Origin: Candidatus Acetothermia bacterium
GTDB lineage: Bacteria > Bipolaricaulota > Bipolaricaulia > M55B111
Length of the DNA stretch: 28,165 nucleotides
Direction of reading: 5' to 3'
Assembly: GCA_046543235.1 (NCBI GenBank)
Contig: JBKGZT010000012.1
Location: 1-28,165, forward strand
The stretch's first letter is position 1; each line of letters opens with the position of its first letter. The position numbers are program-made. Of the stretch, positions 9,001 through 21,000 are shown piece by piece.

Positions 9001-12000
9001 AGGCTCTTTGCCTGTAGGAGACACGACATTCCCGTCATTCTGGTAGTCCCTAACGAGTTCAAGGAAAAGGCAAAATCCAGAATGAAGGAATCCAGGGATT
9101 ACGTAGAACTCGCTTCTCCCGAAGAGCTCGAAGCGAGGGTAAAAGAGATAATTTAGGACCGGAAACCGACAAACAAAGCAATACCTCAAGCAGGGCTCAG
9201 AAAGTCAAGGGGCTACCCCGGTAATGTGGGTAGCCCAAATTTTTGTAAACTCGGATGCTCTCTCTTCTACAAAGGAATAATATAACTTTCTAACAAACTC
9301 CAGTACCGGTTTAACTTTGGTCGGACCCTGGTGAGGGAGTTTGAGAAATCCAAGCCGGAGTTTTTTGAACTTCCAGTGAAGGCCTGAATTTACGTAGAGA
9401 TAAGGATCCTAGACATAATAACGAGACAAAGGTACTTGGTGCCTTTAGCCGGAACTTTTACCGGCAAAGTGAAATGTTGACTCTTTTTAAAGTTTAATTA
9501 TCTTGATTTTAACAGCACTTCAAGAATGTATGGAAAAGTGCTAGGAGAAACGGAGCCACGACGGGGACTCAAGCATGAAAATCAATGACGGACTACCGGA
9601 CGCGGAAAGGGTTACCGTGGTCGGTGCCGGGGTGACTGGACGCGCCGTCGTCGAGTACCTGGATCGAACTGAGGTTAGTTTGTTTGTCACCGACCAGGGA
9701 GAAATCAACCGGGAAACACGAGATTACTTCCTGAAGGGCGGGATCGACTTCGAAGAAGGCGGGCATACCGACCGTGCTCTTGATTCGGATTGCCTAATAG
9801 TTTCCCCGGGCGTCCCACCGGAAAGCGAGCTAATGCGGAAAGCAAGGGCCCGGGGTTTGAGGATCATGGGGGAAATAGAACTCGGGTGTCGACTATCGCC
9901 GAGCAAAACAACTGTAGCCGTAACCGGCACGAACGGCAAAACGACCACGGTGGAATTGATAGAAACGCTGCTAAATCTTTCAGGGAGACGGGCCCTTGGC
10001 TGCGGTAACACAGGTGATCCGTTCATCGGAGCAATTCCCGATCTCTCGCCATCAACTATCCCCGTCGTAGAGGTAAGTAGCTACCAGCTACAGTACACCT
10101 CCGACTTCAGCCCTGACGTGGCGGTCCTTTTAAACATAGAGCCGGACCACCTAAAACGACATGGCACCTTTAATAACTACAGGGAGGCAAAGCTCAACCT
10201 TTTTCGCAATCAAGGGGCTCGAGATTACGCGGTGGTGAAGGAGGGACTCCACGTAGAAAATCTCCCGGGAGGAGCCACGGTCAGGAAGTTCGAACGGAAA
10301 GCCCTCCAGGGAATAGAACTTCCACCCCACCAGGAGGAAAACCTGGGCGCGGCGATCACGGCGGCTGAATGTGTGGTAGGAGATGACTTACCCTCCGCCA
10401 TCAATCCGGAAAAAATTACGGAAACGATCGACATCCCCCATAGGCTCGAGACGATCTCGGTTATCGGCGGTAAGGAGGTCATAAACGACTCAAAGGCGAC
10501 TAACCCCTCGGCCACCATTGCGGCGCTCGATAGCTTTACCCGACCAATCCACCTATTGTTAGGAGGCAAGAAAAAAAATGCGGGTTACGACGCCCTGGCG
10601 AAAAAAATGTCGGGAGCCCCGGTCGAAAAGGCGTATTTATTCGGCGACGCCAGAACCGGTCTGGGGGAAATTCTGTCAGAACAGGGTTACGAAACCTTCA
10701 CTTCTTACCCGTCCATGGAAAAGGCGGTAGTAGAAGCATTGGGAAACTCACGAAAAGGCGAGGTCGTCCTGTTCTCTCCGGCCTGTTCCAGTTTCGACCA
10801 ATTCTCGAGCTTCCGGGAGCGGGGAACCGAATTTACCAGAATCGTGAAGGAAGCCAACGACAACGGGAAGACAAACCCCCAAAACCTCTAACTGGCTCTT
10901 GGCGCAGTTCATCCTTACGACATAAATCACCCTCCCAAATGACAGGCAAGAAGGGGAAGAAAGACGACGGTCCTTGCAGAAAGGGGACACAAGGGATATA
11001 AAATACAATCCAGGTGGGTGAACTAATGGTCAATTACAACGGTCCAAGCACAGGTTTATTGCTGAGCGCTTTTTTATTAACCGTATTCGGGTTGATCATG
11101 GTGTACAGTTCTAGCTGGGTTTACGCGGACCACCATTACGGAGATTCTTATTATCTTCTGCTAAAACAGTCCGTGGCGGGAGTGCTTGGAGTTGGAGCAC
11201 TTCTTTTCTTCATCAACATCGATCTATCTCGAATCTTACCCCTCAGTGGTTATATTTTGGCGGGTTTTACCTTTCTAACGCTTTTAACCCTCGTACCCGG
11301 CCTTTCCGCGGGGGGGCGCTGGCTCGACCTGGGCCCTCTCGCATTCCAGCCGACCGAGGGATTAAAATTCGGACTGATCATCTGGACCTCGTTCGGAATC
11401 GAGGATCTGGGTAGGAGGATTAAGGACTTCAAGCAGGGGATCCTGCCGTTCCTGGTTGTAGTGGGGTCCTTATCCCTGCTTACGCTACTTCAACCGGATT
11501 TCAGCACTACTTTTATCCTGATAGCCACGGTCGGCTTTCTCCTGTTTATCGGCGGAGCACGTCTTATTGACCTCGGAAAGGTTCTGGGGTTGGGATTGCC
11601 GCTGCTCGGCGGGCTCCTTGTGATAGAACCATATAGATTACAGCGGCTAATTTCTTTTTTCGGGCCGGGCCGGGACCCTCAGGAGACCGGTTATCAGCTT
11701 ACACAATCACTGATCGCTTTTGGCTCCGGCGGGATTTTCGGCAAAGGCCTCGGGGGGTCCGTGGGGAAATTTCTCTACCTGCCCGCGGGATATAACGATT
11801 TTATCTATTCTATCGTCGGGGAGGAGATGGGTTTTGTCGGTTCAATTGTACTTATTATTTTATTTGCTTTCTTCGGGATCGAAGGATTCAGGATAGCCGT
11901 TGAACAGGACAACTTAACGTGGGGTTTAATAGCCAGTGGTTTCACTTTCCTGATTTGTTTCCAGGCGTTGTTGAACTTCGCAGTCACGCTTGGGTTAATC

Positions 12001-18000: not shown

Positions 18001-21000
18001 TCCAAGGAACCGGATTCCTACAACCCCGACGATTACAACCTCGCTAATTTAATGGTTATCGGTGTCGGCGGTGGGGGAAACAATGCCGTAAACCGGATGT
18101 CCGAAGCCGGAGTAGGCGGAGTGGAGCTAGTTTCCATAAACACCGACGCCCAGGTCCTGGAGATAAATAATGCGGATCGATACATCCAGATCGGGAAAGA
18201 CCTGACGGGAGGACTGGGTGCGGGCGGCAATCCGGAAATCGGGCGGGAGGCAGCTCTGGAAAGCCAGGAGACGATCGAAAAACTGCTGCAGGGCGTGGAC
18301 ATGCTATTCATAACATGTGGAATGGGCGGGGGAACCGGTACGGGTGCCACCCCCGTAATCGCCGAAGCCGCCCAGCAAATGGAAATCCTTACAACCGGCA
18401 TAGTAACAAAGCCTTTCTCTTTTGAGGGCCAGGAACGGGCGGAAAAAGCCCACCGGGGCCTGAAGAACCTGGTCGACAGGGTCGATACGATAATCACGAT
18501 ATCCAACGATCGGTTGCTGGAGGTCGCTCCTGGGGACATATCGTTAATAAAAGCTTTTGGCATGGTCGACGAAATACTCATGCAGGGAGTCAAAGGAATC
18601 TCCGAATTGATCACGGTTCCCGGGATGATTAACCTGGATTTTGCCGATCTCGAGAACGCGATGAAAAACGGTGGTCCTGCACTAATGGGTATAGGGGAGG
18701 CAGAAGGGGACGATAAAACCGAAAAAGCCGCGGAGAACGCGATATCTTCCCCTCTTCTTGAAGGTTCCATCAAGGGGGCCCGGAACATCATCATGAACTT
18801 CACGGGGAATCCCGAGCTATCCCTGGAGGAAGTCACGAGAGCGGCCGAACTCGTCAAGGGTCAGGCCGACGAGGAAGCGGATATAATGTTCGGTACCACC
18901 ATAAAAGACGGCCTGGAGACGGTAAAGCTAACTATAATTGCAACCGGCTACAATAGCCGACAAGAGGGAAGCGATGAAGAAGCTATCAGAAACATCGCCC
19001 TCGCGGAGGATGAAAACGGCAACCTGGCCGACGAAGACGACCTGGATACCCCGACTTTCCTGAGAAAAGGTTAAGGGCACAAAATATTCCGAACCCCTCC
19101 ATACAAATAAAGTACCGAGTGCCTGGTTACAAAGGACGTACTCTCTTCACCAAGTTCCGGCGATGTTCGGGCTTAGTATTTTCGCTTTTCCAATCTTCCC
19201 GGCCGGTTCTCGGCCCCCCTCGTTACCCTCACCGTGAAGTGGCAGCTTCCGGAGGACTGGTACGGCGGTAAATTCTTAAACCTCAATTCTCTAGGGTCGG
19301 CAATAGCTGGAAAAGCCCCTGCTCGGGTTCCTCAACACCCTCGCTAGCGCTTTGGTCAAGGGCACCCAAACCCGAGCAGGAGCCTTACCAACTATTTACA
19401 AGTTTTAAGATTCTAAATTGCCTCTTTTGAAAATAACTGAAAAACACAGCTCAGTAGAAGAGATCCTTCATCTCCAGAAAGTGATCGTCTATCGGCTTGG
19501 GAGAATTCGCTATTACTTTCTCCAGACCAACCGCTTCAATCCGGTTACCCTTGGAGGCCGTCATGTAACCGAACTCGCCTTCCAAACAAAGTTCCACTGC
19601 CTTGACTCCATATCGGGTTGCAAGAAGCCTGTCGAAGGCGGTCGGTTCCCCCCCTCGCTGTAAGTAGGCCAGGGTGGTTACCCTTATCGGCATATCCAGT
19701 ATCGCGGCGAGCTGGTCCTTGAGATAGTGCCCTATTCCCCCCAGCTTGACGTGGCCAAACGAATCAGTTCCCGACTCCCTGGTTATCTGTTGATCGACTT
19801 CCTTCGGGCTGGCCCCCTCGGATATGACGATGATCGAGAAGTTTTTCCCGGCCGACTCGCGTTCCTTGATCCGCTCCTTGACGTCTTTTACCTTGAACGG
19901 TTCCTCCGGGACCAGGATGGAGTCGGCACCGCCAGCAAGACCTCCGAACAGAGCTATCCAGCCGGAATCCCTGCCCATTACCTCGAGTACCATGACCCGA
20001 TGGTGAGAGTAAGCCGTCGTATGAAGCTGATCCACCGCCTTCATCACCTGTGAAAAAGCAGAATTAAACCCGATAGAGTATTCGGTCTCGGCGAGATCGT
20101 TGTCTATCGTCTGGGGGATTCCTACGGCGTTTATGTCGTAGTCCCTCAACTTATGAGCCACTCCGAGCGTATCGTCCCCGCCTATCGGTATTAACGCATC
20201 CAGTTCGTTGGCTTCGTAGTTCTCCACGGCCTGATCGGGGCCACCTTCGATAGAAAACGGGTTGGTTCTGGAACTTCCCAAAAACGTACCACCGACTGGC
20301 AGGATTCCTGAGACGTCGCCCCTCTCGAGCTCTTCTTTGTCGTCTTTAAGCAATCCGGCCCAGCCGTTTTTGAAGCCCAATACGTCAACCCCTTCGTCCT
20401 TTGCCTTTCGAACAATAGCTCTGATTGCCGCGTTAATGCCGGGAGAATCTCCTCCACCGGTCAAAATCCCGAGTTTATCCATCAATATCACCTTGTTTTT
20501 GAGTTTTTTCGAGGAAATACAGCTCCAGCCCACATGAAAAGGTTTCAAATTTTTCCCGAACCATACTACAACCGGGATATTTTACCAAGAAATCCCGGCT
20601 TTGCAACAGGTAGGTCGGTTTTACGGTCAATTTAGTTGATAAAAGGTTTCTAATTCCGTAGTTTAATATTAGTAATGTCTTTTAAAGGGTTATGAGCGAA
20701 GATCGGAGCCTGGTTTTGGTTATTGGTTGCAATTAAACCTTCTGGTTGATATGCATGGAGAGAGCTTTTTTAGGGCTGGGTTCAAATTTAGGCGACAGAA
20801 AGGCCAACGTCGATAATTCCATAGAACTTTTTACCCGCCAACCGGAGGTAAATCTCCTGGAGAAAGCCTCCAACTACGAGACCGAACCCGTCGGTCCTGT
20901 TCAACCCTGGTTTATAAATACTGCAATCGAGATCGAAACTTCCCTGTCACCCGAGGGGCTGCTGGACTGGTCAAAGGAAGTAGAAAAAAGAATTGGCCGG

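Follow-up and report, generated by a model that had tools for sequence, protein, structure and literature searches.

A single FtsW–FtsI pair as the only recognisable peptidoglycan synthase in nearly all Bipolaricaulota

In all Bipolaricaulota genomes searched except one (G142), our searches support FtsW–FtsI as the only recognisable peptidoglycan polymerase and cross-linker. The near phylum-wide spread of this genotype in free-living thin rods is the new part of the finding. To our knowledge, every well-studied bacterial rod lengthens either via MreB–RodA–PBP2 or via a polar class A PBP, and the bacteria that we know to keep only FtsW–FtsI are spheres or dwell in hosts; a phylum of thin, free-living rods that have this pair alone breaks that pairing of genotype and shape. 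Since nearly all members have no known rod-lengthening machine, their shape is kept some other way. Either the division synthase alone builds a cylinder, or a protein coat holds the rod and peptidoglycan serves mainly for division; both alternatives bear on the minimal wall and on the order in which the machines arose. Bipolaricaulota are now available in pure culture, and the question of shape is open to direct tests.

The window, i.e., the whole stretch of 28,165 nucleotides that was analysed, belongs to a genome (G000) that is 87% complete. Pfam matches between positions 9575 and 19074 give the gene order murD-ftsW-murG-murC-murB-(gap)-ftsA-parA-ftsZ, with the following features:

9575..10891, + strand: murD, Mur ligase (Pfam MurD_N, Mur_ligase_M/C; 31% to E. 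coli MurD)
11026..12102, + strand: ftsW, the sole SEDS glycan polymerase found in G000 (PF01098, 289 bits)
12099..13214, + strand: murG, lipid II synthase (PF04101/PF03033)
13208..14566, + strand: murC (Pfam Mur ligase domains; 35% to E. coli MurC)
14613..15497, + strand: murB (PF02873/PF01565)
15498..15813, no strand: murB–ftsA gap of 316 bases without ftsQ, the ftsQ site in other families (comparison of loci)
15814..17055, + strand: ftsA (TIGR01174, 435.5, over the cut-off)
17121..17861, + strand: ParA-family ATPase between ftsA and ftsZ (AAA_31, 164 bits)
17854..19074, + strand: ftsZ with a 60-residue N-terminal extension (PF00091/PF12327)

The survey's finding had placed ftsW at 11026-12102 of contig C69 and a single class B PBP on contig C46, and both genes are indeed there: ftsW starts with the ATG at 11026 (a GTG at 11014 is an alternative start), and the only class B PBP of G000, at C46:28322-29995, has rsmH and an ftsL-like gene ahead of it. 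Since murA, murE, murF, mraY, murJ, and ddl are also present, the lipid II gene set (murA-G, mraY, ddl, murJ) is mostly complete. The Mur pathway is thus kept, as had been claimed, but the precursor list is not whole, for alr and murI gave no match in G000. Alr was found in 107 of 184 genomes and in 2 of 18 other members of the family of G000, and FtsA in 174/184; FtsK was searched for and not found in G000. The murB–ftsA gap holds an FtsQ-like open reading frame in 11/11 loci from other families and in none of seven further loci of the family of G000, and a profile of the 11 FtsQ-like proteins had no match in G000. The ATPase between ftsA and ftsZ, which scores below the cut-offs of ParA and MinD models, occupies the same position in 6/6 relatives from genera g1 and g2. 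The insertion is limited to these two genera of the family, being absent from G111 and from the loci of other families. The ftsZ extension, with a conserved basic-G-x-D-P-L-D start, is found in all seven ParA-bearing genomes but in neither G111 nor any of 10 genomes from other families. The window proteins of G000 are acid-rich, with a (D+E)/(K+R) ratio of 1.76 (n = 5 proteins).

Judged by sequence, the remaining single pair is FtsW–FtsI. FtsW of G000 scores 333.9 with the ftsW model TIGR02614 (cut-off 337.5) versus 236 with the rodA model TIGR02210, the copies of G002 and G142 pass TIGR02614, and the position of the gene between murD and murG is conserved. The transpeptidase is of the FtsI type, with a pedestal and a transpeptidase domain, and SxxK/SxN/KTG motifs in 36/36 proteins. 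It passes no NCBIfam cut-off (the best model is SpoVD, at 376 bits; PBP2 reaches 293 of 455), its gene follows rsmH-ftsL, and in a tree FtsI proteins separate from PBP2s. FtsW of G000 keeps the equivalents of D297, Y242, R243, G380, and G381, and the catalytic residues, whose functional meaning is taken from PMC8765783, are invariant in 42/42 FtsW and 36/36 FtsI proteins. By their residues, both enzymes look active.

Genes of the elongation machinery were counted in 184 genomes, most of them bins, with G001 and G002 each a single contig; the counts for MreB (TIGR00904) and for the PF00912 transglycosylase (151 + 33) cover the whole set, and those for SEDS (PF01098) and transpeptidase (PF00905) cover 151. 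MreB was found in 1/184 genomes (1/71 high-quality ones; control 7/14), the sole carrier being G142. With PF06723 at E ≤ 0.001, 150/151 genomes match, but matches outside G142 all reach at most 85 bits, versus 417–439 for the two MreBs of G142, and those inspected were DnaK, FtsA, or a second FtsA. PF00912 exceeded the cut-off in 1/151 and 0/33 genomes (control 10/14), PF01098 matched in 146/151, and PF00905 in 145/151. A second full-length SEDS protein occurs in two genomes only, namely RodA in G142 and, in G105, part of a duplicate ftsW-murG-murC block that is 90.5% identical. Extra PF00905 matches are split pieces (three genomes), a frameshifted second FtsI-type copy (G088), and the PBP2 and class A PBP of G142. 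Among the proteins scanned, only those of G142 passed TIGR02210 (RodA) and TIGR03423 (PBP2). The claim that MreB and RodA are lacking across the phylum is thus broken by G142; the one class A PBP match is likewise in G142.

G142, the only genome of family f11, is 93% complete and 5% contaminated. Contigs of native composition carry its mreB-mreC-(mreD-like)-pbp2 operon, rodA, a second mreB, ftsX, and two L,D-transpeptidases; G142 alone has the components of the Rod complex. Both MreBs, MreC, PBP2, and RodA pass their family models, and the mreD position is taken by a hydrophobic 184-residue open reading frame without a family match. The operon occupies the def/fmt-recG junction, which is empty in 22/30 other genomes. 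The class A PBP of G142 is Poribacteria-like and probably misbinned; its contig has a foreign composition. G142 is nested in single-gene RpoB trees and sits in an open basal fork of a six-marker mixture-model tree; basal placement is not rejected (p-AU 0.269), and the Rod system may have been lost once, lost twice, or gained long ago. Ancient loss outside G142 is likelier than gain: five or more native contigs carry the extra genes of G142, and none of the candidates scored as relatives of its PBP2 exceeds 43%. This loss extends to 10 of the 11 families, and the G142 lineage offers a natural "before the loss" comparison.

Wall processing genes were searched for in a panel of five genomes (G000, single-contig G001 and G002, G142, and G145). 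Each has one copy of Amidase_3, and four of five have an Slt-type lytic transglycosylase (SLT) and four of five an M23 peptidase, while DacA, MltG, and NlpC/P60 were each found in 0/5 and L,D-transpeptidase and FtsX in none outside G142. A spacer protein with an SLH domain, a coiled coil, and a hydrophobic C-terminus is present in four of five (not found in G000), and so is CsaB (not found in G002, weak in G001); this tether is therefore not universal. In G000 and G142, csaB is directly upstream of rsmH-ftsL-ftsI. Imaged Bipolaricaulota are rods 0.4–0.46 µm wide with tubular polar extensions. Published observations describe cells of 0.46 µm that shrink to 0.066 µm on drying, prosthecae that bend, and a hexagonal S-layer that covers the toga (reported for the toga, and not stated for the central rod). 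Strain J31 grows at 100 µg/mL ampicillin; the readout was 16S qPCR at high temperature, in which neither a division block nor decay of the drug would show. We found no published report that shows peptidoglycan in Bipolaricaulota, how much of it there is, or where it lies.

We tentatively favour a reading in which FtsW–FtsI makes a light wall at mid-cell and an S-layer/toga envelope holds the shape, following early loss of the Rod system. An early ancestor of most Bipolaricaulota would have lost mreBCD-pbp2 and rodA, apparently together with FtsEX and L,D-transpeptidases, and the G142 lineage would have retained the older kit; our searches found no class A PBP native to any of the genomes. The FtsW–FtsI pair, supplied by the Mur pathway and MurJ, would stay active and, by analogy with FtsW–FtsI elsewhere, be guided by FtsZ–FtsA, laying peptidoglycan at mid-cell only, to be processed by one amidase, one Slt-type lytic transglycosylase, and an M23 peptidase. 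The thin wall may serve division and anchor the outer membrane through the SLH–coiled-coil spacer, bound to a CsaB-pyruvylated polymer, while rod width and the narrow polar tubes would be held mainly by the S-layer/toga envelope rather than by oriented glycan hoops. A soft envelope is suggested because cells collapse on drying, prosthecae bend, the S-layer covers the toga, and J31 tolerates ampicillin. The survey's conclusion, with the whole wall built by the divisome pair, presupposes a full load-bearing sacculus; the drying collapse, the ampicillin resistance, and the S-layer of the toga fit a light wall at least as well.

A complete sacculus would suit the SLH/CsaB anchor and the M23 peptidase just as well, and the main rival to a light wall is that FtsW–FtsI builds a complete, shape-giving cylinder, either by long zonal growth from a mid-cell ring before constriction or moved by FtsZ2, FtsA2, or bactofilin. 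Rods are reported to nearly double in length before a septum forms, the precursor and export route is retained with active sites intact, and csaB stands in front of ftsL-ftsI. Candidate stand-ins for MreB exist in places: 30 clusters hold a second, KH-domain-fused FtsZ whose T7 loop and C-terminal peptide are intact (members with names belong to Bipolaricaulis/Bipolaricaulota; the KH-type domain is DciA/DnaA-domain-I/DnaX-C-like), two FtsA genes occur in 15/19 genomes of the family of G000 and in G051, and bactofilin-type matches occur in 101/151 genomes. Yet none of the three is found phylum-wide, and G000 has none of them. Known MreB-free rods depend on a class A PBP (PMC8546619). Polar-growing Rhizobiales and Actinobacteria are also rods without a Rod complex, but Rhizobiales require a class A PBP with L,D-transpeptidases (PMC8546619). 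Actinobacteria require DivIVA. In Bipolaricaulota, L,D-transpeptidases were found only in G142, and DivIVA in 0/5 panel genomes (G040 replacing G000). Organisms of the same genotype and known shape, the Sphaerochaetaceae, are spheres (PMC7738495), so FtsW–FtsI alone makes no rod there. With the collapse on drying and growth in ampicillin also against it, we consider a complete sacculus unlikely, though a serious contender.

The KH-fused second FtsZ (Bipolaricaulis) and the second FtsA (family of G000) are the leads for an MreB stand-in. That the cylinder and polar tubes are all laid by FtsW–FtsI, steered by such duplicated division filaments in place of MreB (FtsZ2 in Bipolaricaulis and kin, the second FtsA in two other families), is a long shot. 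If true, this would add a third route to a bacterial rod, without a Rod complex or a class A PBP, and, for FtsZ2, a tubulin-guided shape, as in archaeal shape control.

It is doubtful that there is no sacculus at all but only a transient septal ring or disc, guided by FtsZ–FtsA instead of MreB. The model is pathogenic Chlamydia, which likewise have no class A PBP, a SEDS–class B PBP synthesis, and possibly no sacculus, and whose peptidoglycan is confined to a narrow mid-cell ring (PMC4856321). The remaining enzymes here are division synthases and septum-type hydrolases, ftsQ and alr are also missing in some families, and acid-rich window proteins (1.76, n = 5) would fit low turgor in brine. 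However, the cells are free-living, low-salt digesters included, and without a wall polymer the SLH spacer and CsaB would have nothing to bind. Chlamydia, moreover, use MreB and two SEDS genes and have no FtsZ, whereas Bipolaricaulota keep FtsZ–FtsA and have lost MreB.

An unrecognised polymerase or actin, divergent from or unrelated to the profiles on which absence rests, is improbable as the sidewall machine: the MreB search reaches as far as DnaK, FtsA, and a second FtsA at 25% identity, and would therefore not let a true MreB escape; the transpeptidase profile detects the class A PBP domain at 90 bits; our own MreB and class A PBP profiles found nothing new in G000 or 71% of G002 (the MreB profile, run with --max, matched only DnaK and FtsA (15814..17055) in G000); and FtsI would still be the only cross-linker. 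Although most genomes are bins, G000 among them at 87% completeness, an artefact of incompleteness is hardly credible, and for MreB and class A PBP it is refuted by the high-quality counts (70/71 without MreB, including single-contig G001 and G002, with ftsW and ftsI recovered in 68/69) and by the operon site, present but empty in 22/30 genomes.

The FtsW–FtsI-only reading holds outside G142, but the genotype has precedents in PMC8406291 and PMC7738495. Table S1 of PMC8406291 (2021) lists Francisella, Sphaerochaeta (three rows), some Buchnera, and Bipolaricaulis, the last as Bipolaricaulis 'bana', with one ftsW, no rodA, one ftsI, and no class A PBP; the portion of its text consulted leaves Bipolaricaulis and MreB loss undiscussed. 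The Sphaerochaetaceae (Bullifex porci, Sphaerochaeta coccoides) similarly keep Mur genes without rodA, mreB, mreC, PBP1a, PBP2, or PBPC, and B. porci also has no ftsQ and ftsX, like the family of G000 (ftsQ) and the panel genomes other than G142 (ftsX), yet muropeptides were detected in it (PMC7738495). Unlike the thin rods studied here, with loss in 10/11 families, Sphaerochaetaceae are spheres within a helical phylum. The "peptidoglycan-intermediate" bacteria of Atwal et al. 2021 (PMC8406291) likewise combine lipid II genes, SEDS, and a class B PBP without a class A PBP, but there the state is tied to life inside hosts (15/16 species) and irregular or round cells are reported. Bipolaricaulota have lipid II genes and at least one SEDS protein and class B PBP (146/151 and 145/151), with no class A PBP. 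Scarce, weakly rigid peptidoglycan is a further mark of the group; for it, Bipolaricaulota show indirect published hints, namely the collapse on drying and the growth of J31 in ampicillin. Francisella cells are coccobacilli. In PMC8406291, 40 Francisella/Allofrancisella rows show ftsW and ftsI only, with no rodA, PBP2, or class A PBP, and DacD, FtsI, and DacB1 are the only PBPs named in the passage used of the review PMC9877522; unlike Bipolaricaulota, Francisella are facultatively intracellular and have several carboxypeptidases (DacA-type: 0/5 in our panel).

For the envelope, the closest likeness is to the sister phylum Thermotogota, whose toga is a sheath detached at the poles, with an SLH–coiled-coil spacer and CsaB; the excerpt of 10.1101/2021.05.31.446380 used here describes an Omp-alpha/Omp-beta tether and a neighbouring beta-barrel porin. 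In contrast to Bipolaricaulota, the T. maritima control has retained MreB, an L,D-transpeptidase, and a class A PBP domain. Both parts of an Omp-alpha/CsaB-type tether are present in Bipolaricaulota, each in four of the five panel genomes.

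The source genome, Candidatus Acetothermia bacterium (1.32 Mb in 97 contigs, 87% complete), carries the following row of wall and division genes:

C69 (the window contig), 9575-19074: murD-ftsW-murG-murC-murB-(316-base gap)-ftsA-ParA-family ATPase-ftsZ

The sole class B PBP gene is on another contig, C46, 3' of csaB, rsmH, and an ftsL-like gene. Searches with E. coli queries and with queries from G142, which alone represents family f11, also found murA, murE, murF, mraY, ddl, murJ, and an RlpA-like protein, so that the survey's finding of a retained Mur pathway (murA-G, mraY, ddl, and murJ) was confirmed. 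The same queries revealed no mreB, mreC, mreD, second SEDS gene, or class A PBP, and no MtgA, DacA, FtsK, MinC/E, Alr, or MurI; MurI was likewise not found in the 71% of G002, a single-contig genome of the phylum, that was covered by local reading. When applied to the source genome, our own MreB profile (22 sequences, unfiltered) retrieved DnaK and FtsA only, and our class A PBP profile (31 sequences) retrieved FtsI only. The MurA cysteine equivalent to Cys115, which we take to be the fosfomycin target, is kept in both the source genome and G002, and MurE carries a DNPK variant of what is presumably the DAP motif. The occurrence of Alr is patchy (107/184 genomes of the phylum, 2/18 of the others in the source genome's family, and 28/74 in family f5). 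No match to lpxC or kdsD was obtained in the source genome, which is predicted from its gene content to have an outer membrane without LPS. The window also contains, on the minus strand (23027-26152), a BamA/Omp85 gene with POTRA domains, followed by a gene whose OmpH-like product has an extended coiled coil at its N-terminus.

The phylum set comprised 184 genomes from 11 families, 71 of them high-quality. MreB (TIGR00904) was detected in a single genome, which is also the only positive among the high-quality ones (1/71); the control was positive in 7/14. The looser model PF06723 matched 150 of 151 genomes with at most 85 bits everywhere except in G142, and was thus sensitive enough to pick up DnaK and FtsA. 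Third matches to this model were considered as a hidden MreB and rejected: seven of the proteins were read and all were FtsA paralogues, while the remaining ones inspected were DnaK pieces or fell below the cut-off. The class A PBP glycosyltransferase domain (PF00912) exceeded the cut-off in 1/151 genomes and in none of the remaining 33, one extra match of 14.5 bits being noise. SEDS and transpeptidase matches, both counted over 151 genomes without the other 33, were present in 146 and 145 genomes, respectively. Two SEDS matches were seen in ten genomes, but they were complementary pieces in three and below 60 bits in five; full-length second copies occurred only in G142, where the copy is RodA, and in G105, where an ftsW block is duplicated. 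Extra transpeptidase matches were split pieces, a frameshifted FtsI-type copy in G088, and the PBP2 and class A PBP of G142. Gene order, model scores, and tree position identify the remaining pair as FtsW-FtsI, with catalytic residues invariant in the best-scoring and hand-picked loci (42/42 for FtsW and 36/36 for FtsI). Thus, the survey's claim that class A PBP, MreB, and RodA are lacking across the phylum is real but slightly overstated, since G142 has an mreB operon and rodA. A "bifunctional PBP", named in PMC6092417, is not supported by the domain counts.

The class A PBP of G142 shares 73% identity with a PBP1A named as from Poribacteria, and all its other taxon-named matches are from Poribacteria. 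Its contig (L010, G142:C178) is 6.4 kb long, has a G+C content of 49.6% (versus 55-60%), and shows a tetranucleotide distance of 0.033, compared with 0.017 or less in 24 native windows. The gene is therefore rejected as native and was probably misbinned, which explains the lone class A PBP match and brings the count of native class A PBPs to 0/184. The mre operon of the same genome is a different case. Its genes, mreB-mreC-(mreD-like)-pbp2, sit between fmt-def and recG-gatC, and with this setting and a tetranucleotide distance of 0.012 the operon was rejected as contamination. In 22 of 30 other genomes, the 22 covering eight families, the corresponding site is empty and def or fmt adjoins recG head-to-head; in the other eight, there is a different neighbour (five) or a contig edge (three). 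The rodA gene, another mreB, ftsX, and a pair of L,D-transpeptidase genes are located on other G142 contigs, whose genes have relatives in the source genome and whose G+C content is native. No close donor of the operon was seen among the matches listed (54% or less for MreB, 43% or less for PBP2), and metagenome contigs yielded one 36% match. Because there are several unlinked extras without a close donor, we favour retention of an ancestral kit in G142 over its gain.

Trees do not settle this history, and single genes disagree. G142 was nested in an RpoB-only tree, stood beside the outgroup in an FtsZ tree (0.93), and was near family f1 in an FtsI tree (0.80). In a six-marker tree built under a mixture model, it fell in an open basal fork, and basal placement was not rejected (p-AU 0.269) with three distant outgroups, two of which had partial markers. 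G142 RpoB (L187/L271, G142:C8) contains an insert of ~130 residues that is absent from other ingroup RpoBs; Firmicutes have an insert close to this site, but the two align poorly. No rpoC was found beside rpoB in 18 Bipolaricaulota stretches, a few or more of which stop shortly past that gene.

Several proteins were considered as stand-ins for MreB. One is encoded in G002:

L414:4572-5918 (G002:C1:339572-340918): KH-type-fused second FtsZ

This protein passes TIGR00065, is 50% identical to the first FtsZ, and has an 85-residue N-terminal domain with weak Pfam matches to DnaX_C and DciA. The domain folds as KH-type (best Z of 8.2 to the ribosomal S3 KH domain and DciA, and 6.3 to DnaA domain I); these matches indicate a common fold, not a function. 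It is common to 30 clusters, of which those with a name belong to Bipolaricaulis, Bipolaricaulota, or Acetothermia, and the same fusion occurs in more distant fragments. In most members the tubulin signature is changed to GLGKGTG, while the T7 loop is kept. The second FtsZ may couple division to replication proteins, or it may act in cell shape. Two FtsA genes are present in 15/19 genomes of the source genome's family and in G051; G182 also has two, which form a near-equal pair, and the other 163 genomes have one or none. In the family and in G051, the second FtsA is divergent (27-44% identical to the window FtsA) and is encoded at a separate locus (L347-L353), and it is missing from the corresponding site of the source genome (C26:14663-14986). 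The source genome has neither extra protein, and since neither is phylum-wide, none explains the phylum alone. Bactofilin is a weak candidate for a phylum-wide scaffold (101/151 genomes at E<=1e-5, none in the source genome). The bactofilin-type beta-helix proteins, of ~240 residues, are encoded singly or in tandem beside a conserved small gene (L207-L231), an arrangement which we take to resemble B. subtilis yhbD-yhbE-yhbF.

Hydrolases and envelope proteins were followed in a panel of five genomes (the source genome, G001, G002, G142, and G145). Each has one amidase; Slt-type enzymes and M23 peptidases were each found in 4/5, while DacA, MltG, and NlpC/P60 were found in none, and neither was DivIVA (in a panel with G040 in place of the source genome). 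A protein with an SLH domain, coiled coil, and hydrophobic tail was present in 4/5, as was CsaB; the two match the Thermotoga-type tether described for Bipolaricaulota in 10.1101/2021.05.31.446380. The SLH protein was not found in the source genome despite csaB there. In both the source genome (C46:31506-34087) and G142 (C85, L334), csaB lies immediately 5' of rsmH-ftsL-ftsI, and in the former it is preceded by a gene for a DUF5693 membrane protein.

What the sequences show is one active-looking division-type SEDS-class B PBP pair, FtsZ-FtsA, a lean hydrolase set, and an outer-membrane tether. The imaged cells are rods. Those of PMC6092417 measure 0.46 x 1.58 um, bear 0.26-um prosthecae that are flexible, and shrink to 0.066 um on drying; those of the pure culture J31 (10.1101/2025.11.21.689855) measure 0.4 x 0.8-2 um and have a toga bearing a hexagonal S-layer. 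In J31, the rod and toga lengthen before a septum appears, and growth occurs in 100 ug/mL ampicillin (qPCR readout); the main text of that paper mentions neither peptidoglycan nor MreB. Imaged Bipolaricaulota cells are described as non-motile or without flagellar genes. Our tentative proposal, made jointly for its parts, is that synthesis would take place at mid-cell only, the wall would be light, and width would be held by the S-layer/toga. Alternatively, the same FtsW-FtsI pair makes a complete, shape-giving sacculus, which is possible but rather unlikely. It is improbable that the pair makes a Chlamydia-like ring only, and an enzyme unseen by the profile searches is a very unlikely explanation. 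That the absences are an artefact is scarcely credible.

The genotype itself is not new. The rows of Table S1 of PMC8406291 consulted, which include some likely annotation gaps, list it for 40 Francisella/Allofrancisella, three Sphaerochaeta, six Buchnera, Saccharimonas, and Bipolaricaulis (ftsW 1, rodA 0, ftsI 1, class A PBP 0); for the last, we infer the absence of MreB from our phylum count. Deinococcus and Truepera rows were set aside because the D. radiodurans control has PF00912. According to PMC7738495, the same genotype is accompanied by muropeptides in a spherical spirochaete. A literature search, with subscription journals mostly outside its reach, did not find the genotype stated for Bipolaricaulota or tied to their shape. 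The observation is of value because, in a free-living phylum, genotype and shape clash, a conflict that can now be tested in culture, and the one lineage that appears to have kept the Rod system, G142, adds to it.

Division genes of the source genome's family differ in further ways. ftsQ is gone (the window gap is at 15498-15813), and in two genera a ParA ATPase gene (window 17121-17861) lies between ftsA and ftsZ. FtsZ carries an N-terminal peptide (window 17854-18040) in 7/7 genomes of these genera and lacks it in 11 others. The peptide presumably resembles ParA-activating peptides, a likeness that suggests direct positioning of FtsZ by ParA.
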